From assembly GCA_029858565.1 (NCBI GenBank), contig JAOUEV010000068.1, positions 1 to 16,054 on the forward strand: DNA of 16,054 bases. Reading direction: 5' to 3'. Made by a program: the position numbers and the translations under genes. The stretch comes from Nitrospirota bacterium (GTDB lineage: Bacteria; Nitrospirota; UBA9217). Below are positions 1 through 16,054 of this stretch, piece by piece (the first letter of the stretch is position 1; every line of letters begins with the position of its first letter). The notes beneath the pieces were generated by a model. It did not search any database and had not been told where the DNA came from. It saw only the letters and a list, made by a program, of their open reading frames with translations.

Positions 1-89
1 CCCGAACCACCTCGTCCTGTCAAGCATTTTCGTCAAAACGAAGCGTTTTTTCTTCATGACAAAGAACACGAAACTCTAAACCCTAGAAT

Positions 90-1056: not shown

Positions 1057-1486
1057 CTGAACTGCGGTTTCCTGCGAGAAATAAGAACCTAGGACTTTGA
1101 CGGTCGCTTCTCGATTCTCGACATATGTAACTTTCAATCAGAAATTGTCACAGTTTCACTTCTACGAAATCTGTTTAGTAGTAGGTGATATCCACTTTAT
1201 TCCTTCTGACCGCAAGGTGCTTCCCTCGTATATTGCCAGTTCACAACCTGCCCCGATGCCTAATAAATCAATTGGTTGCAGTAGGTACTGAAACCCCTTT
1301 GACATTTTCCGATCCCAATCCCTCCGCAGCGCAACCGTGTAATTTTTAACTCCCGCACTAACGGATCCAATTACCGCCTACTACCAATCCGCTTGGGTAG
1401 GTGCGACGACAGGCTACGGCCATAACTCGAACAACAACCTGATCTCGGTACAGGACGTCCGCCGATGATACTTACTGTCTATTTTC

Positions 1487-1495
1487 TGCTATATT
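1487..1495 (+). promoter_or_regulatory. Possible extended -10 promoter of the diguanylate cyclase gene
   Basis: TG-C-TATATT about 105 nt upstream of ATG 1600; no convincing -35. Confidence 0.3.
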
Positions 1496-1599
1496 TTAAC
1501 TAGCGAATGCCTCGGGATTCAGCCATCTGTTTCAAGACGAGAACACTACAACAATCACAGGAACACAGATAGACCCTAATGACTTCATGGAGAGACACT

Positions 1600-2779
1600 A
1601 TGACCCAGTCCAACAGCGCGCAACCGCCAAAAGAAACAGCCCTGCTTGAGATGCTCTCCCTTGTTTACGAGGAGATGGACATTAATGTCATTGAGGAGCG
1701 ATTTGTCGACCTGACCGCCGATATTTTCGGATTTGACCGGGTAGCCCTGTTTTTCGTGAAACACCGCAAAGGCATGCTGCAGGGTAAGTTGTGCAAGGGC
1801 TTTGTGCCCGGGACGATCAGTTCCCTGGAAATACCGGTTTCGACCGAGAACCTGCTTACCAGACCGCTGGTCACGGGGCTTCCCGTTTTTAGCAAGGCCG
1901 TGCCACATGATGACGACATCGTGAAATTAGGCCTGAAGAATTTCGCTCTTATTCCCATCGTGAGCAAGAAAAGGCTTTCCTGCTGGCAGATCAGAAAGTG
2001 CTATAAAGATGACTGCCCGGCGTTCGGCAAGAGATGGCTGCGCTGCTGGATGGTGCCGGGGACCAAGTGCGGCGATATTCCCCTTGATGATATTGAGCAA
2101 AAAGAGCAACTGTGCCGTGAGTGCGAGGTCTATGCCCAGTTGGAGGCCAATGCCGTGGAAGGGGTGATGATCGTAGACAACTCGATTTCGAACCGGCCGA
2201 TACCTCCGGAAGAGGTGGCGCTGCTCTCCATTGTTGCCCATGCGGTCGGAGGGGCGATCAACCATGCCAAGCTCTATTCCCGGACCTTGCGGGAGTCGAT
2301 CCACGACGAACTCACCGGGCTGTATAACAGGCGGTTTTTCAACGAACGGCTGTTGGATGAAGTGGAACGGACGCGACGGTATGGCGGATCCTTCAGCATC
2401 CTTATCTGCGACATTGACCACTTCAAGCGGATCAACGACACCTATGGCCATCCGATCGGAGACCGGGTGCTCGTCCAGGTGGCGTCCTTGCTCCAGAATA
2501 ACATCCGCAGCAATGACATGGCGTGCCGGTACGGCGGTGAGGAATTCGCGCTGTTGCTGCTCAATTCCGATAAGGACCTCCTGCCGCCTTGCGGAACAAC
2601 TGCGCGGGAAACTGGCGGCAAACGCCATGACCGACATTGGCGGCAATTGCATCACCGCAAGCTTCGGCGTCGCCTGTTTCGGGGAGGACTCCATTTCCTT
2701 TGAGGGGCTGGTGAACAAAGCAGACCAGTCGCTCTATCAAGCCAAGACCCATGGACGCAATCAGGTGTGGACATTGTGA
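1600..2779 (+). pseudogene. Sensor diguanylate cyclase (GAF with inserted Cys-rich two-CW domain, plus GGDEF), frameshifted near 2575
   Basis: GGAG at 1589-1592 before ATG 1600 (alternative ATG 1579). GGDEF hallmarks DELTGLYNRR, DIDHFKRINDTYGH, I-site RSND, RYGGEEF. The C-terminus (LAEQLR...ITASFGVA...KADQSLYQAKTHGRNQV) is in the frame of ORF 2231..2779. Confidence 0.85.
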
Positions 2780-2794
2780 TGCGGCAATGAGTAC

Positions 2795-2828
2795 GCAACA
2801 ACCGGTTTTTACGAAGCACCGTTGTTGT
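2795..2828. terminator. Imperfect hairpin between convergent genes
   Basis: GCAACAACCGGT ... ACCGTTGTTGT inverted repeat just after the cyclase stop codon. Confidence 0.3.
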
Positions 2829-2865
2829 ACGAGTCGGGAGGTGACAGGAGGCGCCCTTTATACCC

Positions 2866-3414
2866 TGCATATGCGGCCAGTCTTCGCCGTAGGCTCCGAT
2901 CTTGATCAAGGTCAGGTCAAAAGGCCCATAACGCCCGCCGATCTCTGCAAAATGATCAGCATATCCCGTGTCCCCGCTGTAGTATACGCTCCTGCTGTCG
3001 CTCCGCACGATCCAGCCTGCCCAGAGCGTTTCGTTCCTGTCGAACAACCCCCTGCCTGAAAAATGACGCGCAGGAACGCAGATGAAGGTCAAGTCTTCGA
3101 TCGTCACCTCTTCCCACCATGACAGCTCCCTGATCTGGCCTGCGGGTACGCCCCAATCCTTCAAACAGGGGCCGACGCCGGTGGTCACGAGGAATATCGT
3201 CCCTTTTCCTGACAAGGCCCTGATCGTGTCCTTTTCCAGGTGATCGTAATGATCATGGGAGATCACCACTGCATCGATGGCCGGCAGGTCTTCAACGCGG
3301 GTCGGCGAATAGTTCTTTTTCAGCCTGCACGGCCGGCGAGCAGGCCGCGCTGATGAGGAGGCTGAACAGGAGGCAAGAGGAAAGAACGGAGCAGGTGATC
3401 AACGAGTTCTTCAT
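2866..3414 (-). pseudogene. Degraded metallo-beta-lactamase-fold hydrolase (RomA/NAPE-PLD-like), lipoprotein-type signal
   Basis: Motifs LPAIDAVVISHDHYDHL, PARHFSGRG, YYSGDTGY, IGAY. Signal peptide MKNSLITC...ISAAC (ATG 3414, AAGGA upstream) is in another frame. The usual N-terminal WLGH/TDP region is absent and similarity ends after WPHM. Confidence 0.75.
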
Positions 3415-3479
3415 GCGGTCCTTGTCCCGACAACAAACCGGGCCGTGGGAGATAATCCGACGGCCCGGTACTTGCCAGG

Positions 3480-3611
3480 TTAGCGTTTCTTCATCTGCCC
3501 CGGCGCGGACTGTTTCTTGATCTGTCCCGGCGGAATATGGCCGCGGTGGTGACACCCCGCAAACACTCCCAGAAACAAGACCAGGGTGAACAATGCGATG
3601 ATCCTCGTCAT
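3480..3611 (-). CDS. 43-aa putative lipoprotein with two PGQxKK motifs
   Basis: Hand translation: MTRIIALFTLVLFLGVFAGCHHRGHIPPGQIKKQSAPGQMKKR*. AGGAGG at 3620-3625, hydrophobic stretch, lipobox FAGC. Confidence 0.75.
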   Translation of the reverse strand: MTRIIALFTLVLFLGVFAGCHHRGHIPPGQIKKQSAPGQMKKR

Positions 3612-3685
3612 GCCCTGTACCTCCTATGAAAGTTTGTAATGTGCATTATGGCTCTCGATGGAAGCCTGATGCAGCTGATGAGCTG

Positions 3686-3706
3686 AAAAGGCCGCAGCAC
3701 GGCTTT
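3686..3706 (-). terminator. Weak intrinsic terminator after rimO
   Basis: Minus strand AAAGCCG-TGCTG-CGGC-CTTTT directly after the stop codon. Confidence 0.35.
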
Positions 3707-3708
3707 GT

Positions 3709-5049
3709 TCAGTCATTTCGCGTTTCCGCTTTCCCCAGGACGTCGTAGTCCCGCGCCTCGGTGATCGTTACATCAACGAACTCGCCGGGTTCGACCTCGG
3801 TCTCCGAAAGATAGACCACCCCGTCGATCTCCGGGGCCTGGGTCTGCATGCGGCCGATGAGCGCCATGTCCTCGATAGCGTCCACGATCACGCGCTGCCG
3901 GGTCCCGACGAGCGCCTGGTTCTTCTTGAGCGATATCTTCTTCTGCAGCCGCATCACCGCGTCGAGCCGCTCTTCCGCGACCTGCGCTGCCACCTGGCCC
4001 GGCAGGTCCCTGGCCGGCGTCCCTTCCTCGGGAGAATAGGTGAAAACGCCCAGGTGGTCAAAGGCATATTCTTTTGCGAACGCCAGCAGCCGCTTGAACG
4101 CGGCGTCGGTCTCTCCGGGAAAACCCGTGATCAGCGATGTGCGGAGAGCTATGCCCGGCACTTTTTTCCTGAGCCGGTCGATGGTGCGCTTGATGTCATC
4201 GGACGTGCCCCGGCGGTTCATGGCCTGAAGTATCTTGTCGTCAATATGCTGCACCGGGATGTCCAGGTATCTGCACAGCTTTTCTTCATCCGCAAGGACC
4301 GCCATGAGCTCATCGGTCACCTTGCCGGGATAGACATACATCAGCCGGACCCATTCGAGGCTTTTTATCTTCGCCAGCTTCCTGAGCAGCTTGGGGAGGT
4401 CGATAGAAAGATCGCGGTACTGCGTCGAATCCTGGGCCAGAAGGACCAGCTCCTTCGTCCCCTCATCAGCCAGCCGCTTTGCCTCGTCAAGGATCGAGTC
4501 AGCCGGCCTGCTGGTGAAGTTGCCCCGGATAAGCGGGATGGCGCAGTAGGAACAGCGGTTGCTGCATCCTTCGGCGATCTTGAGATACCGGTAATGGCGG
4601 GGAGTGGTGCTGACGCGCGGCAGGCCGAAGACCAGGGTCGGCGCCGAGGTCGTGACGATATGCTCGTGCCTGCCCAGCACGCGGCCCGCGATCTCGGCGA
4701 TCTTCGGTATCTCGGCGGTCCCGATGATTGCGTCCGCCTCGGGCAGTTCCTTAGCCAGATCGTCCTTGTACCGCTGGGCAAGACAGCCCGCGACGATCAA
4801 GGCCCGGCACTTGCCCTGCTTTTTCATTTTCGCCGCGTCCAGGATCGCCTCAATGGACTCTTCCTTGGCCGATTCGATGAACCCGCAGGTATTCACCACG
4901 ATCACCTCGGCCTCCGCCTGGTCCGGGGTGATCTCGAAGCCCTGTGATGCGAGCACACCCAGCATCTGCTCGGCGTCCACCTGGTTCTTGGGACAGCCCA
5001 GGCTGATCATGCCGATGCGGATCGGCTTTATCGGTCTCTTTGTACTCAT
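3709..5049 (-). CDS. rimO: Ribosomal protein S12 methylthiotransferase RimO
   Basis: N-terminal LGCPKN, NTCGFIESAKEESI, AGCL; radical SAM YLKIAEGCSNRCSYCAIP; C-terminal TRAM domain with APEIDG. Confidence 0.96.
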   Translation of the reverse strand: MSTKRPIKPIRIGMISLGCPKNQVDAEQMLGVLASQGFEITPDQAEAEVIVVNTCGFIESAKEESIEAILDAAKMKKQGKCRALIVAGCLAQRYKDDLAKELPEADAIIGTAEIPKIAEIAGRVLGRHEHIVTTSAPTLVFGLPRVSTTPRHYRYLKIAEGCSNRCSYCAIPLIRGNFTSRPADSILDEAKRLADEGTKELVLLAQDSTQYRDLSIDLPKLLRKLAKIKSLEWVRLMYVYPGKVTDELMAVLADEEKLCRYLDIPVQHIDDKILQAMNRRGTSDDIKRTIDRLRKKVPGIALRTSLITGFPGETDAAFKRLLAFAKEYAFDHLGVFTYSPEEGTPARDLPGQVAAQVAEERLDAVMRLQKKISLKKNQALVGTRQRVIVDAIEDMALIGRMQTQAPEIDGVVYLSETEVEPGEFVDVTITEARDYDVLGKAETRND

Positions 5050-5105
5050 GATATTTCGCGCAAGACGAGGTTTTCCGGGAAAGGATGAAATATGAACAAG
5101 CTGAG

Positions 5106-5188
5106 TTTACCGCAGAGGCGCGGAGGCCACGGAGAAAGACCTGCTATGCAATATGCTTTTCTCTGTGCCTCTGCGCCTCCGTGGTGAA
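5106..5188. repeat. Palindromic intergenic element with about 9-nt periodic arms
   Basis: Left arm TTTACCGCAGAGGCGCGGAGGCCACGGAGAAA (5106-5137); reverse complement of right arm (5157-5188) is TTCACCACGGAGGCGCAGAGGCACAGAGAAAA. Confidence 0.85.
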
Positions 5189-5215
5189 TATTAAATCGGT
5201 GCTCTCCGTGTTTTG

Positions 5216-5674
5216 CTAGAATCCGCCGGCCATGGCAAGGAACGTGGTCATTTTGTCGTTCATGTCGCGCAGCCGCCGGGACAGCGTCTTGGTGAAGGCC
5301 CAGAGGAACTTGAAGCCCAGCTCCCGGTCGGTGATGAAGATGTTCTGAAGGTCTTCCTTCTTGAGGGTGATGAGGGACGCATCGGTGTTCGCGATCGCGT
5401 GGGCCGAGCGGGGATAGTTGTCGATCAGGGCCATCTCGCCGAAATACTCGCCTTCCTTCATGACGGTCAGGGCTTCCTCGCCGATGTTCGGAACATGCTT
5501 GCTGATGCGGACCTCGCCCTTCAGGATCATGTAGCATTTGTCGCCGACATCGCCTTCCTTGAAGATGACCTCGCCGGTCTTGAAATAGATGCCGTCGCAG
5601 ACCTGCCGGATCTTCTCAAGCTCCGAATCGGTAAAATTCTCAAAGAGGTTGATCTTCTTGAGCAGGATGATCAT
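5216..5674 (-). CDS. Stand-alone cyclic-nucleotide-binding domain protein
   Basis: LF...IFKEGDVGD..YMILKGEV...FGEMALIDNYPRSAHAIA; no CRP HTH. AAGGAG precedes ATG ATG (start 5674 or 5677). Confidence 0.9.
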   Translation of the reverse strand: MIILLKKINLFENFTDSELEKIRQVCDGIYFKTGEVIFKEGDVGDKCYMILKGEVRISKHVPNIGEEALTVMKEGEYFGEMALIDNYPRSAHAIANTDASLITLKKEDLQNIFITDRELGFKFLWAFTKTLSRRLRDMNDKMTTFLAMAGGF

Positions 5675-5687
5675 CATTGCTCCTTTG

Positions 5688-6062
5688 TCACCGGAAACCG
5701 CTGCGCGTTTCAAAGGCGTTCCGGATAAGTTCAATGCGCTCTTCGGGCATGCGCGTGATCGCAACAATATCGAACCGGCAGGGCATCTGGTGCAGCTTCC
5801 TGGCGGCGAGATAGGCCAGGGCGGCCTTGGTCATCCTCGCCTGCTTGCGCGTATCCACGGCCAGCTCCGGCGCGCCGTAGGCATCGCTGGTGCGCGTTTT
5901 GACCTCCACGAACACGATCGTGTCACGGTCCATGGCGATGAGGTCGATCTCGCCCGCGGCGATGCGGAAGTTCCGTTCCAGGATCCGATATCCCTGGCCG
6001 GCAAGGAACCGCGATGCGCTGTCCTCGCCGCTTCTACCCAGCAGTTTGCTTAGAAGGCTCAT
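5688..6062 (-). CDS. yraN: YraN family (UPF0102) nuclease-like protein
   Basis: GRSGED.A...[10 protein letters not shown]...GEIDLIA...VFVEVKTR...RFDIV; usual position after rnhB. Confidence 0.93.
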
Positions 6063-6741
6063 GCTTCACCAGGAGCATCGAGGATATCGGCCGGAAGGAA
6101 CGCCGGTGCGCTTCGCAGGGGCCGTGCTCACGGATGCTGGCAAGATGCTCCGCCGTGCCGTATCCCTTGTGCTTCCGGAAATTGTACGCCGGGAACCGCT
6201 CATGGAGCTCGTTCATCATCCGGTCCCGCGTTACCTTCGCCAGGATCGATGCGGCCGCGATGGAATGGCTCAGGCTGTCGCCTTTAATAATGGCCTTTTG
6301 CGGGATCGTCAGGCGCTTAAGGACGCAATTTCCGTCAATGAGCAGGTAATCGGGCGGAGGAACGATGGCCGCCACCGCGCGTTCCATTGCGAGGAGTGCT
6401 GCCTGGAGGATATTGATCTCATCGATGGTGCGCTCGTCAACGAGCCCGATCCCGTGCGCAACAGCCTTCGCGCGGATAACATCGTAGAGCCGCTCCCGCT
6501 GGCGCTCGGTCAATTTTTTCGAATCATTCACCCCGTCGATCAGGCAGCCCTCGGGAAGGACGACCGCGGCGGCTACCACCGGTCCTGCAAGCGGTCCGCG
6601 CCCGGCCTCATCAAGACCGGCGATGCGGAGCGCCCCGGAAGCGCGTACGGCCCGCTCAAACGAAAGCGGGTCGCAGTTCAGATCGAACGGGCTTTCCGCT
6701 CCCGCCTGGTGGGCCGACGGGCGAACCGAATCTCGGGGCAT
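6034..6741 (-). CDS. rnhB: Ribonuclease HII
   Basis: [53 protein letters not shown]. Start set at ATG 6741 (GAGG upstream), approximate. Confidence 0.96.
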
Positions 6742-6853
6742 AAAGACCTCGGCGAATGGTTCAGATTTGAAGCTTCCGGCGGCGAACCGCGGGGACCGCG
6801 CCCGCTGCCGGACCAACGGTCAGATCATGACCGGGAACAGGCGGTTTTCTCGC

Positions 6854-7240
6854 CTACTCCGCTTTGGCTGCTGCAGGAGCGTCCGCGAACACGCGGCCCT
6901 TCTCCTTGATGCGGGCCGCGCGGCCGCGAAGATCGCGGAGATAGTAAAGCTTCGCCCGGCGGATCTTGCCTTCCTTGGCAAGCTCGATCTTGTCGACCAT
7001 GGGGGAATGGAGCGGGAAGAGCCTCTCCACGCCCACGCCGTAGGAAAGCTTGCGCACGCGCACGGACTCGCGCATGCCCGAACCCTGCCGGCCGATCACG
7101 AGACCCTCGAAGATCTGGATGCGTTCCTTGTCGCCTTCGACTACCTTCGCATGCACCTTGATGGTGTCGCCGACGCGGAAGTTCGTGATGCCCGATTTCA
7201 TCTGGGGCTTCTCGATCGCGTTCAAAATAGTGTTGTTCAT
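6854..7240 (-). CDS. rplS: 50S ribosomal protein L19
   Basis: FRVGDTIKV...[12 protein letters not shown]...[18 protein letters not shown]...RRAKLYYLR; AGGAGG at 7247-7252. Confidence 0.98.
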
Positions 7241-7258
7241 GGTAATCCTCCTGGTTCA

Positions 7259-7310
7259 AATGCGGAATGCGGAGAGCGGCATGCGGATATCACATCCGCA
7301 CATCGCATCC
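7259..7310. repeat. Heptamer tandem repeat with inverted copies (trmD-rplS spacer)
   Basis: TGCGGAA TGCGGAG AGCGGCA TGCGGAT, spacer ATCAC, then ATCCGCA CATCGCA; perfect 7-bp stem 7282-7288/7294-7300. Confidence 0.8.
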
Positions 7311-7322
7311 AACACGCCAAAA

Positions 7323-8081
7323 TTAATGTAAATTATGTTCCTTCTTGAGTTCGTCGAGAACTCTCAAATCTTCCTTGGTCAGCTCGGCGGTCCTCAGCAG
7401 GTCAGGCCGCTTCAGCAGCGTCGCCCGGAGCGATTCCTTCCGCCGCCACCGCATGATCGCGTCATGGTTCCCCGAGAGCAGCACCTCGGGTACCTTCCTG
7501 CCCCGGAACTCAGCCGGCCGCGTGTAGTGCGGATGGTCGAGAAGGCCGTCGCCGAAGGAATCTCGGTACGCCGATTCCTCGTCGCCGAGCACGCCGGACA
7601 CCAGCCGGGCAGCCGCGTCGATCACTACCAGCGCCGCGAGCTCGCCGCCGGTCAACACATAATCGCCGATGGAAAGCTCCTCGTCCACCAGCGTTTCCTT
7701 CACCCGCTCATCAATGGCTTCGTAATGCCCGCAGAGCAGGATGATCCTGCGCCGCTCCCGCGAGAGCCGCTCCGCCGCCGGGTGATCGAACACCCTGCCC
7801 TGAGGAGAGAGCAGAATGGTCAGAAATCCTTCGCCGGGATGCTCCGCCTTGACCGCGTCCACTGCAGCGAAGACCGGCTCGGGCTTCATCACCATGCCGG
7901 CCTCGCCGCCGTAGGGGCTGTCGTCAGCAGTCCGATGCTTGTCCGCGGTGAAGTCCCGGATGTTCCACAGCCGGACGTCCAGAAGATCCTTTTCCCGGGC
8001 GCGCTTCAGGATGCTTTCCGAGAGCGGGCCGGCGAGGATGCCGGGGAACAGGGTGAGCACATCAAACCGTAGCTTCGTCAT
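7323..8081 (-). CDS. trmD: tRNA (guanosine(37)-N1)-methyltransferase TrmD
   Basis: [66 protein letters not shown]. Start ATG 8081 or GTG 8099. Confidence 0.98.
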
Positions 8082-8116
8082 TGCCCGACCCGCCGTCACT
8101 CATCCGAACTACTTTG

Positions 8117-8228
8117 TAAACCACGGGTTCCGACTGCGTCGGAACACACAGATAAAAGCTCAGTATTCAGAATTACATTCGGTCAGACTCTGGGTCGCAA
8201 CCGTGTGCGACGCAGGCGCCAGTGGTTA
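8117..8228. repeat. Palindromic intergenic element with nested hairpins (rimM-trmD spacer)
   Basis: Ends AACCAC...GTGGTT; internal hairpin GTTCCGAC-TGC-GTCGGAAC (8127-8145); GTCGCA...TGCGAC in the right half. Confidence 0.65.
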
Positions 8229-8236
8229 ATCAAACT

Positions 8237-8740
8237 TCAGTCCAGAAGACCTTCCAGCACATGGATGACCATGCGCCTGGCCTTCCGGTCCACCTGCCGG
8301 ACCACTTCCTTTGTCGCGGGCAGATAGATCTCCCTCGTGCCCGCCTTCATGACATAGACGTCGTTGCTGCCGGTCTCGAAGATATCGGTGATCGTGCCGA
8401 GCTTTTCGCCCGCCTCGTTCACCACTTCCATCCCGATCAGTTCGAACCAGTAGTAGTGACCCTCGGGAAGCGGGACCGCTTCCTCTTCGGGGACCTGCAC
8501 CAGCCATCCATTGAACGCCTTGGCGGTCTCCGGCGCGCTGTAGCCTTCCAGCAGCAGCAGCGGATCGCCGTTCATGTACCGCACGGCCTTGACCCGGCAC
8601 TCCTTCTGCTCCCCTCGGGACGACACCAGGAACACCCTCCGGAGCTTCAGGAACCGGTCCGGATGGTCGGTAAGGGGCTCGATCTTGATCTCGCCCTTCA
8701 CCCCGTGGGGCTTCAGGACCTTGCCGATGGTTATGAGCAT
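8237..8740 (-). CDS. rimM: Ribosome maturation factor RimM
   Basis: IGKVLKPHGVKGEIKI, LPEGHYYWFELIG, ETGSNDVYV, YLPA; synteny. Confidence 0.97.
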   Translation of the reverse strand: MLITIGKVLKPHGVKGEIKIEPLTDHPDRFLKLRRVFLVSSRGEQKECRVKAVRYMNGDPLLLLEGYSAPETAKAFNGWLVQVPEEEAVPLPEGHYYWFELIGMEVVNEAGEKLGTITDIFETGSNDVYVMKAGTREIYLPATKEVVRQVDRKARRMVIHVLEGLLD

Positions 8741-8763
8741 GTGTTCAGCGGGAGCAATCGCTC

Positions 8764-8811
8764 ATGCGGATTTCGCATCTCATTCCGCACTTCGCACTCC
8801 GCACTTCGCAC
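8764..8811. repeat. Heptamer tandem repeat (rpsP-rimM spacer)
   Basis: TTCCGCA CTTCGCA CTCCGCA CTTCGCA (8783-8810) next to the rpsP stop; small hairpin ATGCG-GATTT-CGCAT (8764-8778). Confidence 0.85.
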
Positions 8812-9075
8812 TTATTTTGCCGCTGCGTGCTGTTTCATGATGCCGGCCTTGGAAAGCAGGGCCCGCACGGTATCGGTCGGGACCGCGCCCTTCTTGAGCC
8901 AGCCGAGAGCCTTTTCCTGGTCGACCTTCGTGCCGCCTTCCTGCTTGAGCGGATCGTAGGTCCCGATCATCTCGATGAACCGGCCGTCGCGCGGGCAACG
9001 CTCGTCCGCGATCACGACCCGGTAATAGGGCTTCTTGTGGGTTCCGATCCTCTTGAGTCGAATCTTTACTGACAT
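8812..9075 (-). CDS. rpsP: 30S ribosomal protein S16
   Basis: [34 protein letters not shown]...WLKKGA.PTDTV; GAGGTG upstream. Confidence 0.98.
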
Positions 9076-9103
9076 TGTGTCACCTCTTTCGTCTGATTGA
9101 ATC

Positions 9104-9135
9104 TTCCTGCTTTCCTCTGCGGTCTCTGCGCGAGA
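9104..9135. repeat. Single arm of a 9/10-nt periodic element (ffh-rpsP spacer)
   Basis: TTCCTGCTTTCCTCTGCGGTCTCTGCGCGAGA resembles the right arm at 5157-5188; local hairpin GCGGTCTC-TGCGC-GAGACCGC. Confidence 0.55.
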
Positions 9136-9147
9136 CCGCCTTGTTTT

Positions 9148-10488
9148 TTAAAACGGCATCCGGCCGCCCATCATGCGGCCGAGGTTCTTCATCTTGCCGC
9201 CCTTCATCATCTTCATCATCTTCTGCATTTCCACGAACTGCTTCAAGAGCCGGTTCACATCCTGCACCTGGGTGCCGCTGCCCCTGGCGATCCGCGCCCT
9301 GCGGCTGCCGTTGATCAGGGTGTGATTCGCCCGTTCCCGCGCCGTCATGGAGTTGATGATCGCCTCGACGCGCTTCAGTTCCTTCTCGCCCTGCTGCATG
9401 TCCACGTCGGCCATCTTCTGCTTGTTCAAGCCGGGGATCATGCCGATGATCGACTCGAGGGAACCCATCTTCTTGACCTGCCGGAGCTGGTCCCGGAAAT
9501 CCTCGAGATTGAAATCGTTCTTCCGGAGTTTTTTGGCGAGCTTCTCGGCCTCCTCGCGGGAGACCGTTTCCTGCGCCTTCTCGATGAGCGTCAGCACGTC
9601 GCCCATGCCGAGGATGCGCGACGCCATGCGGTCCGGGAAGAACGGCTCCAGGGCGTCGAGCTTCTCGCCCATGCCCACGAGCTTGACCGGCTTGCCCGTC
9701 ACCGCCTTGACGGACAGCGCGGCGCCGCCCCGGGCGTCGCCGTCCATCTTCGTCAGCACCACGCCGTCGAACCCGATGTCGGCGTTGAACTTCTCGGCGA
9801 TGTTGACGGCTTCCTGGCCGGTCATCGCGTCGGCAACGAACAGGACCTCCGACGGTTTTACCGAGGCCTTGATCTGCCGAAGCTCATCCATGAGCGGCTC
9901 GTCGATCTGGAGCCGCCCCGCGGTATCAAGGATCACCACATCGAACAGCGAGCGTTCCGCATGCGCTTTCGCGTCCCTGCAGATCGCCACGGGGTCCGAT
10001 GATTCCGAAACGAATGCGTCGACCCCGACCTGTTTTGCCAGGGTCTTGAGCTGCTCGATCGCGGCCGGCCGACGGGTGTCAGCCGGGACCAGAAGGACCT
10101 TTCGGCCGTCCTTCTTGAAGTTCCTTGCCAGCTTGCCCGAGGTCGTGGTCTTGCCTGAACCCTGAAGACCGACCATCATGATGATCGTCGGCGGGTTCGG
10201 AGAAAGATGCAGCTTTGACTGCGTACCGCCCAGGAGGCTCATAAGCTCCTCATGGACGATCTTGATGACCTGCTGGCCGGGCGTGAGGCTGGTCAGGATC
10301 TCCTTGCCGACCGACCGCTCCTGGACCTTTGCGATGAACTCCTTGACGACCTTGAAGTTGACGTCAGCCTCAAGGAGAACAAGGCGCACCTCGCGCAGCG
10401 CCTCCTTGACGTCCTCTTCCTTCAGAACGCCTCTACCGCGAAGTTTCTTGAAGACCGTTTCTAATTTTCCCGTCAGTGCATCAAACAT
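9148..10488 (-). CDS. ffh: Signal recognition particle protein Ffh
   Basis: LLEADVN, GLQGSGKTTT, DTAGR, TKMDGDARGGAALS, Met-rich M domain with SRRARIARGSG. Confidence 0.98.
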   Translation of the reverse strand: MFDALTGKLETVFKKLRGRGVLKEEDVKEALREVRLVLLEADVNFKVVKEFIAKVQERSVGKEILTSLTPGQQVIKIVHEELMSLLGGTQSKLHLSPNPPTIIMMVGLQGSGKTTTSGKLARNFKKDGRKVLLVPADTRRPAAIEQLKTLAKQVGVDAFVSESSDPVAICRDAKAHAERSLFDVVILDTAGRLQIDEPLMDELRQIKASVKPSEVLFVADAMTGQEAVNIAEKFNADIGFDGVVLTKMDGDARGGAALSVKAVTGKPVKLVGMGEKLDALEPFFPDRMASRILGMGDVLTLIEKAQETVSREEAEKLAKKLRKNDFNLEDFRDQLRQVKKMGSLESIIGMIPGLNKQKMADVDMQQGEKELKRVEAIINSMTARERANHTLINGSRRARIARGSGTQVQDVNRLLKQFVEMQKMMKMMKGGKMKNLGRMMGGRMPF

Positions 10489-10517
10489 GGGAGTACATGG
10501 CTCGGCAAAGAACTAGA

Positions 10518-10546
10518 ATATTAAAAGATAAGTCCTCTTCTGTCAA
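10518..10546 (-). promoter_or_regulatory. Sigma70-type promoter of the ffh operon
   Basis: Minus strand TTGACA (10546-10541), 17 nt, TAATAT (10523-10518). Confidence 0.7.
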
Positions 10547-10612
10547 GGCTTTTCTCTCCTGACAACGGACCTTTTGGCAAGCCGAAAGAGGGTTTCGAAG
10601 TTTATATTCCTG

Positions 10613-10641
10613 TTGACCTTGGATATAACTACAATTATAAT
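10613..10641 (+). promoter_or_regulatory. Sigma70-type promoter of the rhodanese gene
   Basis: TTGACC (10613-10618), 17 nt, TATAAT (10636-10641). Confidence 0.75.
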
Positions 10642-10788
10642 AACAACTAAAGTTGCATATTGCATCGCTAAAAACCATCGCTTTCTCGACTAGTTGAAGA
10701 AAGGAGGAGCACGGGACAACCGGTCCGCATCAGCAGAAATCGGAGCATATCAGCCCCTGTCACAAAGAAAGGGCGGAAACGGAGGATC

Positions 10789-12213
10789 ATGATGCTTGGA
10801 AGTAAAAATATCAGTCTAGTTCCGGCGTTCACGCTGGCCGCCAGCCTGGCCATGGCAGTTATCGGCTGCCAGACCACGCCGGCAGCCAAACCGGCCACGG
10901 CAGCACCGGCAGCCCCGACCAGGCCGACCATGGCCAAGATCTGCGGCAACTGCCACACCCCCCAGGCCGGGAGCCTGCGAGGCAACTTTGAAGGTGTCGC
11001 ATACAAGACCCAGTCGATCCAGGTAAAGATCGACGACATCTCCGAGGTCATCCGCTTCGACAAGGCGACCCTCAAGATCGAGAATGTGAAGGGGGAGAAT
11101 ACCGAAGAACCCCTGCGCGACATCTCCAAGGGCAAGGAAGTGCGCGTCGAGTATACCGAGAAAGATGGCAAGAAGTTCGCCACGCTTGTCGTGGCAAAAC
11201 CGCCCATCAAGGTCGCCGCGGACAAGATCATGAGCACCGAGGACGTGGAGAAGCTTGTTGGCCTGGGCCCCGAGAAAGGCAAGTACACCCTGATCGACGC
11301 ACGGCCTCCTCTCAAGGCGCTGGAGGGCACCATCCCCACGGCCATCAACATCCCCTTTGTGGCGTTTGACAAGATGGTGGACAAGCTTCCGCAGGCAAAG
11401 GATGCGCTAATCGTCTACTTCTGTCAGGGCGTTACCTGAGCAATGAGCCCAAACTCCGCCAGTCGGGCGGAGAAGCTCGGTTACACCAATGTCAAGGTCT
11501 ACCATGACGGGATCCCTGTCTGGACAAAGAAGAATTTTACCGTACTGAACATAAAGCAGTTGAAGGAAGGCTGGATCGAGAAGGACATGCCCCACGTACT
11601 GGTCGACGTGCGGCCTGCATCGGAGGCAGAGAAAGGCTTCATCAAGGGCGCAGTAACGATTCCCGCAGCCGACGTGGCAAAGAACATCGACCGGTTCCCG
11701 CCCAAGGAGAAGAAACCGCCGATCATGATCTATGACCAGAAAAGCGGCGATGACGCCAAGGCTGCTGCGAAAGCGCTGGTCACGGCCGGATACCCGATGG
11801 TCAATGTGATCACCGGCGGATTCGATGCCTGGCAGGCCGCGGGATTCCCGACCGAGGCCGGCAAGCTCGCCACGACCATGGCCTACGTTCCCAAGCCCCG
11901 GCCCGGGACGATCGCGATCGACGAGTTCAAGAAGCTCGCCGCCAGCATCCCCCCTGATACGATCCTTGTCGATGTACGAAGCCAGGCTGAGGCAAATGAG
12001 GGCATGATCAAGGGCGCCAGGGTCATCCCGGATGCGGAGATCCTGGACCGTCTTGCCGAACTCTCCAGGGACAAGAGGATCATCACCTACTGCAATACGG
12101 GCGTGCAGGCGGAGATGACCTACCACAAGCTGAAGGAGAAGGGCTACAACGTGGCATTCCTGAACGCGAAGGTTTCGTTCGATGACAAGGGAAACTACGT
12201 GATCGAACCGTAG
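10789..12213 (+). CDS. Putative selenocysteine-containing lipoprotein: heme c motif plus three rhodanese domains (474 aa, Sec217)
   Basis: The two ORFs are in the same frame, separated only by TGA GCA. The TGA falls within rhodanese domain 1 (LIDARP...GTIPTAINIP...IVYFCQGVT-U-AMSPNSA...LGYTNVKVYHDG...W). Lipobox VIGC (C27), CGNCH (52-56), domain 2 loop IYDQKSG, domain 3 loop YCNTGVQA. GGAGG at 10781-10785. Confidence 0.88.
11444..11479 (+). promoter_or_regulatory. Bacterial SECIS-like hairpin
   Basis: Upper stem CTCCGCC (11454-11460)/GGCGGAG (11466-11472), loop AGTCG with G second, lower stem GAGC (11445-11448)/GCTC (11475-11478); 21 nt between TGA and loop. Confidence 0.82.
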
Positions 12214-12236
12214 GATGGGATCCTTATGAATCAGTG

Positions 12237-12270
12237 GGCCCCGGGATCAAAAGACTCCGGGGCCTTTTTT
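12237..12270 (+). terminator. Intrinsic terminator of the rhodanese gene
   Basis: GGCCCCGG ... CCGGGGCC followed by TTTTTT. Confidence 0.85.
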
Positions 12271-12307
12271 ATTCCAAACTCTGTTATCAATGCTTTTCTG
12301 CCGACAC

Positions 12308-12380
12308 CGTCAGTCTCGGCTTCGCCGGAAATCCTGGGACTTTAGGAATAACTCCGTATCTTCGCTTTCAGGGGACGACG
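12308..12380. repeat. Degenerate REP-like palindromic element
   Basis: CGTCAGTCTCGGCTTCGCCGGAAATCC ... TATCTTCGCTTTCAGGGGACGACG; resembles a decayed GTCATTCCCGCGAAAGCGGGAATCC-type repeat pair. Confidence 0.4.
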
Positions 12381-12413
12381 AAATGCCGGCAAGAATCGCA
12401 CGCTCAGCCATTC

Positions 12414-13424
12414 CTACAACGGGAAATGGCACGCCACGCGATGACCGTCCCCGACCTCGCGCAGCTCCGGCTCATTCGCCGGGTCCGTGCAGACCTCCGG
12501 CCGGCCCCTGGCCTCGTACACCGGACAGCGCGGTGCGAAACGACAGCCTGACACCGGGCGCTCAAAATCGAACACGCCCCAGCGCCCTGCCTGCACGCTC
12601 ACGGCCTTTCGCGAGACCTCTTTGCTCTGCTTTTCCGTGAGCGACGACCAGAGGATATGCGTATAGGGATGGTGCGCCGCCCGCGCGATCCTCTCGGCCA
12701 TGCCCATCTCCACCACTTTGCCGAGATACATCACCGCCACCTTGTGGCTCATGAGCTCCACCACCCGTAGATCGTGGGAGATGAACAGAAAGGAAAGCTT
12801 GAGCTGCTGCTGGAGGTCCCGCAGCAGGTTCACGACCTGGGCCTGGATCGAAACATCGAGCGCGCTTGTGGGCTCGTCCGCCACAATGAACTGGGCGCCC
12901 ACCGACAGGACCCGGGCGATCCCTACGCGCCGTTTTTCGCCGCCCGACAGTTCATGAGGAAAGTTCGAAAGTTTGCTCTTCTTGAGGTTCACCATTTCCA
13001 GCAGTTCAGCGATCCGCTTTTCGGTCGACCCCTCGGCGATCCGGTGATGGACCTCGATGGCCTCGGTCAGGATCTCGCGGATGCGCATCTTGGGGTTCAA
13101 AGCCGCGTCCAGGTCCTGGAAGATCATCTGCATCTTTCCGCGCAGGCCCCGCAGCTCGTCGGTCGAGAGCGTGGTGATATCCTTCCCGTCAAAGATGATC
13201 TTTCCCGATGTCGGCTTCTCCAGGCGGAGGATGGTCCTTCCGATGGTCGTTTTGCCGCAGCCAGATTCGCCCACAAGACCGACGGTCTCGTTCTCCTTGA
13301 GGTAGAAGCTCACGCCGTCCACCGCGGGGATGGACTGCTGCTCAGCCTTCACCGCGGAGAAGAGCCCTTTGCGGTGGGTGAAGTGTTTTTTCAGGTCCTG
13401 AACTTCAAGAATGGTCTTTGCCAT
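12414..13424 (-). CDS. Oligopeptide/dipeptide ABC transporter ATP-binding subunit (OppF/DppF-like)
   Basis: GESGCGKTT, QMIFQD, LSGGEKRR, IVADEPTSALDVSIQAQ, HPYT, GCRFAPRCP, VACH. Start ATG 13424 (alternative GTG 13481). Confidence 0.93.
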   Translation of the reverse strand: MAKTILEVQDLKKHFTHRKGLFSAVKAEQQSIPAVDGVSFYLKENETVGLVGESGCGKTTIGRTILRLEKPTSGKIIFDGKDITTLSTDELRGLRGKMQMIFQDLDAALNPKMRIREILTEAIEVHHRIAEGSTEKRIAELLEMVNLKKSKLSNFPHELSGGEKRRVGIARVLSVGAQFIVADEPTSALDVSIQAQVVNLLRDLQQQLKLSFLFISHDLRVVELMSHKVAVMYLGKVVEMGMAERIARAAHHPYTHILWSSLTEKQSKEVSRKAVSVQAGRWGVFDFERPVSGCRFAPRCPVYEARGRPEVCTDPANEPELREVGDGHRVACHFPL

Positions 13425-13471
13425 AATAATTGAATTTTTCCGCAGCGGAACAGAGACAATCCTAAATCTGT

Positions 13472-13588
13472 TTTTTGACACCGAAGACGCTGAAAAAGGC
13501 TATGAAGAACCAGGATAAAGCTTTGCTTCTTCCGCTTTTCATCCGCCTCTTCCGTGTCAAAAGTATTTCCAGTGTCCTCAGTGTCCAA
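13472..13588. repeat. Palindromic intergenic element between the two ABC ATPase genes
   Basis: TTTTGACACCGAAGA...TGAAAA pairs with TTTTCA...TCTTCCGTGTCAAAA (ends 13562), followed by 9-mer repeat CAGTGTCCT CAGTGTCCA. Confidence 0.65.
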
Positions 13589-13597
13589 GCAAACGAT

Positions 13598-14695
13598 TCA
13601 ATCAAAATACAACCAGCACCGCGCCTTGTGCCCGCTGCTGATCTCGCGCAGCTCCGGCTCCTGTTGCTCGCACCGCTCCCGGACCTTATCGGTCACCTGG
13701 CTGCACCGGCCGTAGAACCGGCAGCCTGCGGGGATATTGATCGTATCCAGCACATCCCCTTCGATGGCCTGAAGATGCCCCTTCTCCTTCACGTTCTCGG
13801 CGCTCGGGATCGACGTGAGCAGTGCGGACGTGTACGGATGCTTGCGCTCGGCGGTGCGGGACAGGATGTCCTTCACAGGACCGGTCTCCACCACCGTGCC
13901 GCCGTACATCACCGCGACCGTGTCGGACAAACGCGAGATGATACTGATGTCGTGACTGATCAGCACGGTCGTGATGCCGAGTTCGGACTTCAACTCCGCA
14001 AGCAGGTCAGCTATCTTGGACTGGATGGTCGCGTCCAGGCCGGTTGTCGGCTCGTCTGCGATCAGAAGCTGCGGTTCGCAGGACAGGGCCATGGCGATCA
14101 TGGCCCGCTGGCACATGCCGCCTGACAGGCCGTAGGGATAGTTGTCGTACCGGAGCCGGGGGGAATCTATCTTCACCCGGTCTAGCCATTCAATAGCTTT
14201 TTCCTTGGCAGCTTTTTCTTCCTTATGGTCCGTATGCAGGCGCACCGCTTCGGCGATCTGGCTTCCCACGGTCTCGAAGGGATTCATGGATTGCTTGGGG
14301 TTCTGGAAGATCATGGAGATCTCCTTGCCCCGGATCTTCGCCATCCGCCGTTCCGACACTTCCCGCCACCCGTCCTGGTCCTTTTGCACGGCCATGATGC
14401 GGCCGTCGGTGCGCGTGAGCGTGACGTAATCCTCCAGGTCCTGGAGCAGGTTCTTCTGCACCGTTTCCGACTTAAAACCGATCTTTCCGGTGATCACCCC
14501 CGGCCCGGAGGAGACCAGGCCCATGACCGACATGGCGGTAATGCTCTTGCCGCTGCCGCTCTCGCCGACGATGCCGAGGGTCTCGCCCTTCCCGACCTCC
14601 AGGCTCACGCCGTCCACGGACCGGATAAAGGCCTGCTTGCTCTTGGAATAGAAGTAGGTCCGGAGGTCCTCGATCTTGAGCAGAGGAGCTGTCAT
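13598..14695 (-). CDS. Oligopeptide/dipeptide ABC transporter ATP-binding subunit (OppD/DppD-like)
   Basis: GESGSGKS, SMIFQ, LSGGMCQR, LIADEPTTGLD, HPYT, GCRFYGRC. ATG 14695 overlaps the upstream TGA (TGATG). Confidence 0.94.
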   Translation of the reverse strand: MTAPLLKIEDLRTYFYSKSKQAFIRSVDGVSLEVGKGETLGIVGESGSGKSITAMSVMGLVSSGPGVITGKIGFKSETVQKNLLQDLEDYVTLTRTDGRIMAVQKDQDGWREVSERRMAKIRGKEISMIFQNPKQSMNPFETVGSQIAEAVRLHTDHKEEKAAKEKAIEWLDRVKIDSPRLRYDNYPYGLSGGMCQRAMIAMALSCEPQLLIADEPTTGLDATIQSKIADLLAELKSELGITTVLISHDISIISRLSDTVAVMYGGTVVETGPVKDILSRTAERKHPYTSALLTSIPSAENVKEKGHLQAIEGDVLDTINIPAGCRFYGRCSQVTDKVRERCEQQEPELREISSGHKARCWLYFD

Positions 14696-15588
14696 CACTT
14701 GTTCCTCTTGCCTTCCAGAATGTTGTTCAGGCCGTCGCCGAGCAGATGGAACCCCAGGATGGTGAACAGGATCGCCAGGGCCGGCGCGGTGGACGGCCAG
14801 AACTGGCCCTTCATGAAATAATTGGACCCCGCCTGCACCATGTTGCCCCACGACGGCGTGGGCTCCTGCACTCCGAAGCCCAGGTAGGAAAGCGAGGTCT
14901 CCATCAGGATCGCCTCTGCCATGCCGAGCGTGGCCTGGATGATCAGGATGGACCGGCAGTTATGCCAAAGGATGTGCTTGAGAATAATAATGCGCGTGGG
15001 CACGCCGAGAGCGATGTCCGCTTCGATGAAGTTCTTCTGCTTCAGGAACAGGATCTTGCCCTTGACCAGCGACGCGACCGCCGGAATATTCGTGATGCCC
15101 ACGACCAGCATGATGTACCAGATATCAGGCTTGAACGCGGCGATCACGAGCAGGATCAGGACAAGCCGCGGAAAGGAATCCACGAGGTTCGTGAAATAGG
15201 TGATGCCTGTCTCGAACCTGCCCCCCCGATACCCCGCAAGCACGCCGAGGATGGTCCCGAACAGGAGCGCTATGAATATGGCGAGCAGTCCCGGCAGGAA
15301 GTAGGCCTGGATCCCCACGATCAGCCGCGAGAGCATGTCCCTTCCCATGAAATCCGTGCCGAGCAAATGCTTGCCCGTGAAAGGCCCGGCCATCATGAGC
15401 TCAAGGTCAAGGTCCTGGGGATCGAACGGCAGCAGATTGAACGCGCCGAGGAGATAGGACAGTACCACGAGTGTCACGACCAGCAGACCGTAGCTCACGT
15501 AGGCCAGGTCGATGCGGTCCGCCTTTTTCCAGAACGGCAGGTCCGAGAATTCGCCGATCTCGCCGGATATTTGGGTGTAGGATTTCAT
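14695..15588 (-). CDS. Peptide ABC transporter permease (OppC/DppC-like)
   Basis: HLLGTDFMGRDMLSRL, FIEADIALG, ETSLSYLGFG...PSWG. ATG 15588 overlaps the upstream stop (ATGA). Confidence 0.93.
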   Translation of the reverse strand: MKSYTQISGEIGEFSDLPFWKKADRIDLAYVSYGLLVVTLVVLSYLLGAFNLLPFDPQDLDLELMMAGPFTGKHLLGTDFMGRDMLSRLIVGIQAYFLPGLLAIFIALLFGTILGVLAGYRGGRFETGITYFTNLVDSFPRLVLILLVIAAFKPDIWYIMLVVGITNIPAVASLVKGKILFLKQKNFIEADIALGVPTRIIILKHILWHNCRSILIIQATLGMAEAILMETSLSYLGFGVQEPTPSWGNMVQAGSNYFMKGQFWPSTAPALAILFTILGFHLLGDGLNNILEGKRNK

Positions 15589-16054
15589 TCTTTCGACGCT
15601 CTCGGATTCACCATCACATACACCACGCTCTGGAACAAACTGCCCATGCGCACCAGCATGGCGGCTACGATCGCGATGCCCATGATGACCGGATAGTCGC
15701 GGTCCTGGGCAGCCTGCCAGGCCATCCTGCCCATGCCCGGCCAGTTGAACACCTGCTCCACGATCACCGCGCCGCCGAGGATAAAGGGGATCTTGGCCGC
15801 CACGATCTCGGTCACCGGGATCAGGAACCCTTCCTTGAACGCATGCTGCCAGACCGATGCGCCTTTGGCCCGGGCAGTGCGGATGTAGTCCTCTTCCATG
15901 ACCCGGCCCATCTCCTCGCGGAGCGATCGGATCACCTCGCTGATCGTGCCGTTGCCGATGCCGAGCACGATGATCGGAAGCAGCGCATATAACCATTTCT
16001 CGCCGCCTGTTGCGTAGCCGAATGCCATGGGAAAGAGACCGAGCTAGTGGGTAA
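15585..16054 (-). CDS. Peptide ABC transporter permease (OppB/DppB-like), 3' part; in-frame TAG at 16044-16046
   Basis: EDYIRTARAKG, GAVIVEQVFNWPGMG, RDYPVIMG. The gene runs off the window end. Confidence 0.88.

Follow-up and report, generated by a model that had tools for sequence, protein, structure and literature searches.

How should a gene be read when an in-frame TGA codon splits it in two, and what might its product do? Both questions are raised by a rhodanese gene of a Nitrospirota bacterium (assembly GCA_029858565.1, contig JAOUEV010000068.1). Positions 1-16,054 of the contig, the whole stretch of DNA that was analysed, are referred to here as the window. Two plus-strand open reading frames (ORFs), 10789-11439 and 11443-12213, lie in one frame with only the TGA at 11437-11439 between them in the ORF listing. 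When this TGA is read as selenocysteine (Sec), a 474-residue protein results. The feature is the whole gene at 10789-12213 on the plus strand (474 codons and a TAG stop, one in-frame TGA being read through) and extends well beyond the segment 10789-11260 that a preliminary description of this DNA had originally given. Its predicted product is a selenoprotein with a heme motif, an OB-fold, and three rhodanese domains.

The in-frame TGA codon

The TGA codon (11437-11439, plus strand) corresponds to residue 217, five residues past Cys212, in a column that holds Cys in homologs. A word-indexed database search returned 760 hits, and the window protein with the best 120 of these 760 made up the alignment of 121 sequences from which conservation is counted here. 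Position 217 is Cys in 121/121 aligned database sequences. Among the fetched genomic loci that carry the loop motif, the column is TGA in 18 and TGC or TGT in 46; with the window this gives 19 Sec forms.

Downstream of the codon lies a hairpin resembling a selenocysteine insertion sequence (SECIS), with a 7-bp stem and a 5-nt loop, at 11454-11472 on the plus strand, which starts 15 nt after the TGA. A hairpin is found 14-16 nt after the UGA in the same register in all 19 Sec forms (19/19). Across these forms 90.2% of the stem cells are paired, as against 37.6-51.1% when the partner strand is slid. Three of the seven hairpin pairs show compensatory changes, and none of 500 shuffles matches the observed covariation score. 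The mean folding energy of a 33-nt segment is -12.3 kcal/mol in Sec forms and -8.8 kcal/mol in Cys forms (Mann-Whitney p = 4e-4). An Rfam scan of the whole window gave nothing at the gathering threshold, hence the hairpin is placed in no named SECIS family; tRNA genes were likewise absent from the window, and none of selA, selB, selC, and selD was found in its 16 kb. Because the column is otherwise entirely Cys and a hairpin with compensatory changes stands at a fixed position in the Sec forms, the TGA at 11437-11439 is, as judged by comparative sequence analysis, a Sec codon.

Were the TGA a true stop, the locus would encode a 216-aa heme/OB protein that breaks off within a rhodanese domain, plus a second protein of 256 aa with two rhodaneses, starting at the ATG at 11443. 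ORF calling with table 11 yields exactly these two ORFs, and the 216-aa product occurs letter for letter in the ESM Atlas, where clusters of about 200 aa exist. However, the first rhodanese domain would then be cut in its active-site loop, Cys stands at this position in all 121 full-length homologs, and the conserved hairpin follows the TGA in TGA forms only. Moreover, 22 of the 150 listed database hits of the N-terminal module (described below) end exactly here, just ahead of the Sec codon, as is typical of gene callers that stop at it. A true stop is therefore regarded as highly improbable. For annotators the rule that follows is to read through the UGA in these genes.

Domains of the predicted protein

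Pfam PF00581 matches three rhodanese stretches (156.8 bits against a cut-off of 22.2, E 2.3e-46), all encoded on the plus strand. Domain 1 (residues ~148-254, 11230-11550) carries the active-site loop C212-Q-G-V-T-U217, with Cys212 at 11422-11424. Domain 2 (residues ~255-362, 11551-11874; best Pfam stretch 264-351) has Asp316 (11734-11736) in place of Cys, and domain 3 (residues ~372-474, 11902-12210) has the canonical loop C435-N-T-G-V-Q440-A, with Cys435 at 12091-12093. In a profile-profile alignment (hhalign) of the three domains, C212, D316, and C435 share the catalytic column, and U217 ends a loop that lacks one residue relative to the canonical C-x-x-G-x-R-A loop in domain 3. C212 is present in 120/121, D316 in 115/121, and C435 in 121/121 aligned sequences. 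Because Asp316 replaces the catalytic Cys, domain 2 is considered catalytically dead. The PDB profile matches in domain 3 are the rhodanese domains of CoA-disulfide reductases, PspE, and Sud (1qxn). For the protein as a whole, 20 partial NCBIfam matches are listed at E up to 1, none above its own cut-off.

Two side observations concern these loops. The Q440 codon CAG differs from CGG by a single base and is either a real variant or a sequencing error. In a Geobacteraceae metagenome-assembled genome (MAG) the domain-1 loop of one relative (L027, 1-1257) reads D-T-G-P-D-S, with Asp at both the Cys212 and the Cys/Sec217 positions, and is a natural form with a dead domain 1. This relative and L028 of the same MAG (1-1257 each) are two paralogs located directly upstream of Psr-like operons, their N-termini being cut by the contig end.

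Ahead of the rhodanese domains lies a predicted CusF-like OB-fold beta-barrel (residues ~62-137, 10972-11199, plus strand). AlphaFold2 (AF2) places strands at residues 62-71, 76-81, 84-90, 96-98, 117-125, and 128-136, and models the N-terminal module alone (N-module; residues 44-147, 51-sequence alignment) with a pLDDT of 92.0. The best PDB matches of this module in Foldseek are CusF structures (3e6z, 1zeq, 2vb2, 2qcp; E 4.5e-4 to 7.5e-4, TM on target 0.66-0.74), after which other OB folds follow (SilF, YgiW, CspA, and LysRS N-domains). The OB-fold-like beta segment proposed in the preliminary description is supported by the predicted strands and by the matches to CusF. The likeness to CusF and SilF concerns the fold of residues ~62-137; sequence identity is only 12-14%, and CusF, in contrast, lacks CxxCH and is not fused to rhodaneses. 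Modelled in full from the 121 sequences, the protein is compact (pLDDT 91.0, pTM 0.81), with residues 1-30 disordered (pLDDT <50) and three alpha/beta domains following the six-stranded beta module. Foldseek matches of the whole model are only multi-rhodanese proteins, at TM of about 0.2.

By sequence, the N-module is less easily placed. Pfam gives no match in residues 1-147, and a PDB sequence-profile search finds rhodanese domains only, profile positions 1-128 being uncovered. A hidden Markov model of the N-module, searched exhaustively against 1.84 billion representatives, gives only 181 hits at E <=0.001. Of these, 150 were listed and inspected: 17 are full-length Cys forms, 22 stop exactly before the Sec position, and 111 are fragments or others. 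The module sits at residues ~30-135 in nearly all listed hits, and 109 of the 150 carry CxxCH; the invariance of CxxCH within the profile itself is by construction, because the sequences were chosen for having it. A word-indexed search with residues 40-148 gives 12 hits, every one of the same architecture, and in the ESM Atlas the best N-module scores are 0.78 (a lead only), among clusters of about 200 aa labelled rhodanese. As far as these searches indicate, the N-module is rare and almost confined to the heme-motif triple-rhodanese family. In unrelated exported proteins the OB-like barrel of the N-module also occurs without CxxCH, repeated 3-5 times in tandem, and it is present within giants of 2649-3995 aa as well; the barrel-only proteins are P0226, P0230, and P0273 together with P0239, P0267, and P0278 (six, including three giants).

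Just upstream of the barrel, in a short helix at residues 50-54 of the AF2 model, is CGNCH (C52, C55, and H56; 10942-10956, plus strand), a putative c-type heme attachment motif. C52 is present in 119/121 aligned sequences (the others being one Gly and one N-terminal truncation) and C55 and H56 in 121/121, so the motif, whose conservation the preliminary description had proposed to check, is nearly invariant. Spacing variants keep the Cys-His pair: CX4CH occurs in P0181, P0199, P0210, and P0215, and CX3CH in P0200. Known c-type heme sites also vary in spacing, for example in cytochrome c3. Among 60 loci examined closely, 52 carry CxxCH; of the remaining eight, a contig end truncates three, L043 has CX4CH, and four (L056, L058, L062, L067) have truly lost the motif. 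These four keep the OB module and the Cys/Sec loop and are lipoprotein-like. No Pfam cytochrome model matches the window protein. That it binds heme is something we infer from sequence.

The N-terminus (10789-10869, plus strand) is a predicted signal peptide with K6 in its n-region and a lipobox-like V-I-G-C, residues 24-27 (10858-10869, Cys27 at 10867-10869), followed by QTTPAAKPATAAPAAPTRPTMAK. The lipobox rule is [LVI][ASTVI][GAS]C ending a signal peptide, and VIGC fits it. An alternative signal-peptidase-I site, AMA/V, ends at 10857 on the same strand, directly before the lipobox. A Pro/Ala/Thr-rich tether (residues 28-51, 10870-10941, plus strand), recognised from sequence and with low to moderate pLDDT, leads to the heme motif. 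Signal peptides can be read at the N-termini of the window protein and its relatives, and on this basis the protein is predicted to be exported to the periplasm, which is where c-type heme attachment occurs. The membrane anchor proposed in the preliminary description is weakened: most of the 121 aligned sequences have AxA-type signal peptides, and a loose lipobox pattern flagged 8/121, of which seven were ambiguous on inspection. One relative, P0140, has VAAAC-QTAPAAKP at the place of the lipobox and is the sole one that shares the Cys. Lipid anchoring of the window protein is therefore plausible as a peculiarity of its lineage, not as a trait of the family.

The features that the preliminary description had read from the letters (VIGC, the linker, CGNCH, and the Asp and Cys positions) are all located where it put them, and sequence, Pfam, alignment, and AF2 agree on one exported protein that joins CxxCH, an OB-fold, and three rhodaneses (Cys plus Sec, Asp, and Cys). 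The architecture, which had been called unusual, is not so in the sense of being rare. The best 120 of the 760 relatives have 424-497 aa, are 49-63% identical, and share it, and a second search from a Geobacter-type Sec form gave 1684 hits. By these searches the family is large rather than rare, with both Sec and Cys forms; Desulfosediminicola flagellatus (L052) is a carrier of the Sec type and Rubrivivax sp. A210 (L012) of the Cys type. P0310 is already named by one NCBI source as 'cytochrome c with three rhodanese y domain, selenocysteine-containing', and the NCBI name of P0102 is 'sulfur transferase selenocysteine-containing protein'; the architecture has thus been noticed in annotation. 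A literature search that covered few subscription journals found no paper describing or characterising a heme-motif triple-rhodanese protein, in line with the preliminary description, which knew of no characterised protein of this kind. The family is sizeable, already annotated, and uncharacterised. Two betaproteobacterial homologs (L042:7830-9647 and L064:7905-9368) have a decayed look, with several in-frame TGA codons on read-through; L042 loses the frame after ~60 N-module residues, and an intact copy exists in L007 of the same MAG.

Proposed function and genomic context

Sud is the periplasmic polysulfide-sulfur transferase of Wolinella succinogenes, which serves a PsrABC-type molybdoenzyme, and the preliminary description had likened the window protein to it in concept. 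The neighbourhoods of Cys-type relatives agree with this comparison, whereas those of the Sec-type genes do not. A Psr/Phs-like (PsrABC/PhsABC-like) molybdoenzyme set was found by tblastn with representative neighbours in the fetched flank of 24/34 Cys-type CxxCH loci, which are not phylogenetically independent and some of which have short flanks. The set consists of a Tat-signal molybdopterin subunit (Mo), a 4Fe-4S NrfC/PsrB-like subunit (FeS), and an NrfD/PsrC-like subunit; the best NCBIfam match of the molybdopterin subunit is PhsA (505-518 bits, below the 694 cut-off). The gene order is Mo-FeS-NrfD-rhodanese in Betaproteobacteria. In Geobacteraceae it is a DUF3373 barrel, a small protein, the rhodanese, an octaheme Otr-family (tetrathionate-reductase-family) cytochrome (152-158 bits, below its cut-off of 375), Mo, NrfD, and FeS. 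YeeE/YedE 'Sulf_transp' genes also recur near Cys-type loci.

The cluster of DUF3373, a ~107-aa protein, the heme-motif rhodanese, the octaheme cytochrome, and PsrA/C/B-like subunits recurs in L018, L020, L023, L025, L044, and L049 (Geobacteraceae and related). Its component list is similar to that of the extHIJKL cluster, but the order and the proteins are different. In another locus (L065), DUF3373, a small protein, and a bona fide Otr (594 bits) lie near a heme-less triple rhodanese.

The reading that we favour, at a probability of about 0.5, is that the window gene encodes an exported, probably lipid-tethered periplasmic selenoprotein that acts as a Sud-like carrier or transferase of sulfane sulfur (possibly selenium) and is fitted with a heme c and Cys/Sec redox module. 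Heme electron transfer would be coupled to S/Se transfer, as the preliminary description supposed; the architecture, its conservation, the Sec recoding signal, and the placing of Cys-type relatives in operons with Psr/Phs-like enzymes are observed here, and we infer the heme, the lipid, the substrate, and all chemical steps alike. MccSep (ExtKL; see below) offers a precedent in which heme, Cys, and Sec together act on polysulfide and selenite. The protein would carry sulfane sulfur (polysulfide or thiosulfate-derived) in anaerobic chalcogen respiration, as Sud does for polysulfide reductase. Cys435 of domain 3 would form a persulfide in the classical rhodanese way. The Cys212/Sec217 pair at the two ends of the domain-1 loop may then attack S-S or S-Se bonds, giving a selenenylsulfide or a bridged Cys-S-(S/Se)n-Se-Sec intermediate. 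Finally, the heme could relay single electrons from periplasmic cytochromes and so re-reduce the Cys212/Sec217 pair, or it could sense the redox state.

Several observations weigh against a Sud-like carrier with a heme. Psr/Phs-like, Otr-like, and DUF3373 genes are found in 0/15 Sec-type CxxCH loci and nowhere in the window; because no Psr-like gene lies near Sec-type genes, the Sud-like partnership is an extrapolation from Cys-type relatives that are 46-56% identical. Anchoring and independence from Psr are traits of the lineage. As to the anchor, the closest relatives (L001-L005) have no lipobox Cys and possess ordinary AxA sites, and AMA/V competes with the lipobox in the window protein itself. 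As to the heme, the N-module holds no conserved Met or His that could be a distal ligand, its only invariant residues being C, C, H, and K137, so a heme would either stay five-coordinate or draw a ligand from another domain. Some relatives have no heme motif but keep the OB-fold and the Cys/Sec pair (L056, L058, L062, L067, and P0274); the heme would therefore be dispensable for the core function. Lastly, Gln440 in the domain-3 loop (12106-12108) is unique to the window (1/121; Arg in 114/121) and may weaken classical sulfurtransferase activity.

A possible though unlikely alternative is that the protein is not a carrier but a self-sufficient periplasmic chalcogen reductase, in which Cys212/Sec217 would cleave polysulfide, tetrathionate/thiosulfate, or selenite while the cytochrome pool feeds the heme. 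One residue of the pair might even be the distal heme ligand, which would make the protein a one-heme analogue of MccSep or TsdA on a rhodanese scaffold. The lack of a distal ligand in the N-module leaves room for one from a rhodanese domain. Sec is typical of catalytic redox residues, and the Sec-type genes stand alone, with no partner enzyme nearby in any of the 15 loci and, in the window, with a promoter-like site and terminator of their own. There is also a precedent for the chemistry of heme, Cys, and Sec together: according to the accessible part of PMC13510729, MccSep (ExtKL) reduces polysulfide and selenite with a His/Cys-ligated heme and Sec, and occurs in Desulfobacterota and Nitrospirota. 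H269 (domain 2) and M406, Y445, and H446 (domain 3) are conserved in heme-motif forms and differ in the five heme-less ones, a weak and phylogeny-confounded hint. In fact ~35 of ~140 conserved positions, these four included, differ between heme-motif and heme-less forms, and no conclusion on a distal ligand is drawn from them because divergence, too, is greatest in the five heme-less sequences. On the other hand, a single heme passes one electron at a time, no electron-entry partner is apparent, such chemistry is already the task of an enzyme whose operons contain the Cys-type members, and the Cys/Sec pair is kept in heme-less forms. An unlikely reading goes further and sees a distinct class of periplasmic chalcogen oxidoreductase. 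Its OB-fold heme would be ligated by or apposed to the Cys212/Sec217 loop, in a His/Cys(Sec) site evolved independently of MccSep, TsdA, and SoxAX. With no higher probability, such an enzyme would make or break S-S and S-Se bonds on a persulfide delivered by domain 3, the Sec-type being a lone lipid-tethered polysulfide/selenite reductase.

The heme itself can be questioned. CxxCH could be a Cys2His site for Cu(I), Zn, Hg, As, or a similar element, or else a redox-active CxxC disulfide on a CusF-like fold, and the protein would then couple the handling of a thiophilic metal or metalloid with that of sulfur. The best structural matches of the N-module are indeed the Cu(I)/Ag(I) chaperones CusF and SilF, Pfam finds no cytochrome, no distal ligand is conserved, and ArsR-family regulator domains (in a doubtful ORF call) occur near some Cys-type loci. 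This reading is nevertheless improbable: the His right after the second Cys is invariant (121/121), the CX3CH and CX4CH variants keep C-H as heme sites do, and a GenBank annotator also read the motif as cytochrome c. The motif, moreover, lies ahead of the barrel in a short helical turn (50-54) and not at the CusF metal site, the CusF ligand positions having been left out of the comparison. Still less probable is selenium trafficking, in which the protein would trap periplasmic selenite or selenide for uptake or detoxification, binding it as a Cys-S-Se-Sec or selenotrisulfide adduct. Rhodaneses are known to bind selenium as perselenide. In the portions of the sources at hand, ExtI/ExtH of Geobacter are linked to selenite uptake and reduction (PMC5877670), and MccSep also turns over selenite (PMC13510729). 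Against it, the Cys-type members associate with Psr/Phs-like enzymes and YeeE-type transporters rather than with known selenium genes, and nothing selenium-specific is encoded in the window.

Compared with known systems, the window protein counts as a rhodanese-domain protein and as a selenoprotein, and belongs to none of TsoB, LYCAU, and ExtKL. It has in common with Sud the rhodanese fold, a catalytic Cys, and export; within domain 3, the family profile finds 1qxn at E 1.3e-4, and the genes of Cys-type relatives stand beside Psr/Phs-like operons. In contrast, Sud is a homodimer with one rhodanese domain per subunit and lacks heme motif, OB-fold, and Sec; the window protein has three domains and the N-module, and no psr genes lie near its gene. 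Other multi-rhodanese sulfurtransferases share the three or four tandem domains (1yt8, E 7e-16; EanB, ~1e-12; YnjE, 2wlr/3ipo, ~1e-10); unlike the window protein, YnjE, 1yt8, and EanB have neither a heme-motif/OB module nor Sec, and the low TM of the whole model to multi-rhodanese proteins arises because the domain arrangement differs.

ExtH (GSU2940) of the Geobacter extHIJKL cluster is, in the sections available, a rhodanese-like lipoprotein linked to selenite/sulfur metabolism (PMC5877670, PMC6148476), described without cytochrome character (PMC6148476) and annotated as 'Rhodanese homology domain pair protein' (PMC10599522). By these descriptions, and by description rather than sequence, it resembles the window protein as an exported rhodanese of an anaerobe. 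Geobacteraceae relatives of the window gene also cluster with an outer-membrane barrel, a ~107-aa protein, and a multiheme cytochrome, a set of components similar to ExtI/J/KL. The window gene, in contrast, has ffh and oligopeptide ABC genes as neighbours and no extHIJKL-type cluster (porin, small protein, ExtKL cytochrome), and Ext-like genes were found beside none of the Sec-type genes, although the preliminary description had likened the protein in concept to ExtH. With MccSep (ExtKL), as far as it is described in the part of PMC13510729 at hand, the protein would share a periplasmic location, a c-type heme (here putative) with Cys and Sec, the same phyla, and the existence of both Cys and Sec forms. 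MccSep differs in having five hemes, a multiheme-cytochrome fold, and no rhodanese, whereas the window protein combines a single CxxCH on an OB-fold with rhodaneses; the 20 listed NCBIfam matches (E up to 1) do not include the ExtKL model NF040886. The resemblance would hypothetically be one of mechanism, not homology.

Rhodanese selenoproteins have also been described elsewhere. In the table of PMC13188914, as far as the source is accessible, TsoB is given the motif UxxxxU and 'rhodanese-like form 1' the motif UxxS, with no mention of a heme motif. TsoB is likewise a rhodanese selenoprotein, and its UxxxxU spacing equals that of C212-x4-U217; U-A-M-S of the window protein fits UxxS, a comparison by motif only. 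In NCBIfam, TsoB (NF045694) scores 63.7 bits against a cut-off of 805, with the match confined to domain 1, and rhodanese_LYCAU (NF041203) scores 72.9 bits against 115. Because both scores are below the cut-offs, the window protein belongs to neither family.

Periplasmic sulfur carriers such as Sud are regarded as redox-inert shuttles. A heme site and a Cys/Sec pair on a triple rhodanese within Psr/Phs-type operons of Betaproteobacteria, Geobacteraceae, and others would point to an unstudied redox step in polysulfide or thiosulfate respiration. If true, this would, together with the 2026 finding on MccSep, mean that 'heme plus selenium' sulfur chemistry exists on a second, unrelated scaffold in the same phyla.

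Gene signals and neighbouring genes

A sigma-70-like promoter, TTGACC-17-TATAAT, with 11/12 consensus matches lies at 10613-10641 on the plus strand, ~148 nt 5' of the start codon; a scan of the region gave 4 promoter sites against 1.1 expected in shuffles, by consensus match only. A Shine-Dalgarno-like GGAGGA (10781-10786, plus strand) is seen in the sequence ahead of tandem ATG codons at 10789 and 10792, and its spacing would favour the second ATG (10792). An intrinsic-terminator-like hairpin followed by UUUUUU is located at 12236-12271 (plus strand), 23 nt past the stop codon, with a 10-bp GC-rich stem and a minimum free energy of -24.9 kcal/mol; it escaped a pattern scan with a loop limit of 8 and was seen by folding. 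Based on the promoter-like site upstream and the GC-rich hairpin with a U-run past the stop, the gene looks monocistronic.

The window is syntenic with loci of Nitrospirota MAGs (L001-L005), whose homologs of the rhodanese protein are 61-66% identical and whose Ffh is 80-85% identical to that of the window. On the minus strand come miaB-like, cNMP-binding, UPF0102, rnhB, rplS, trmD, rimM, rpsP, and ffh genes, then the rhodanese gene on the plus strand, and downstream of it oligopeptide-type ABC genes on the minus strand. The 16-kb window holds no sulfur-related, selenium-specific, or ext-like neighbour.

In one of the syntenic loci the gene directly downstream (L002:9425-10369, minus strand) encodes just one rhodanese domain, to which a stretch with weak similarity to the iron exporter MbfA is attached. 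A downstream ORF in another (L004:9526-10170, minus strand) was grouped with it by clustering only, and the window lacks a counterpart at this position. Four plus-strand ORFs at 5589-8959 without a Pfam match were considered as unknown genes and rejected as shadows of the minus-strand UPF0102-rnhB-rplS-trmD-rimM-rpsP region. A GAF-GGDEF ORF (1579-2703, plus strand) matches only the first 93/161 positions of the GGDEF profile, and in a convergent ORF of the metallo-beta-lactamase fold (2652-3269, minus strand) the profile match does not begin until position 35; either ORF may be cut short or mis-bounded around 2650-2700. At the left edge of the window, beyond the conserved synteny block, an ORF at 90-806 encodes an Mrr-type restriction endonuclease domain.

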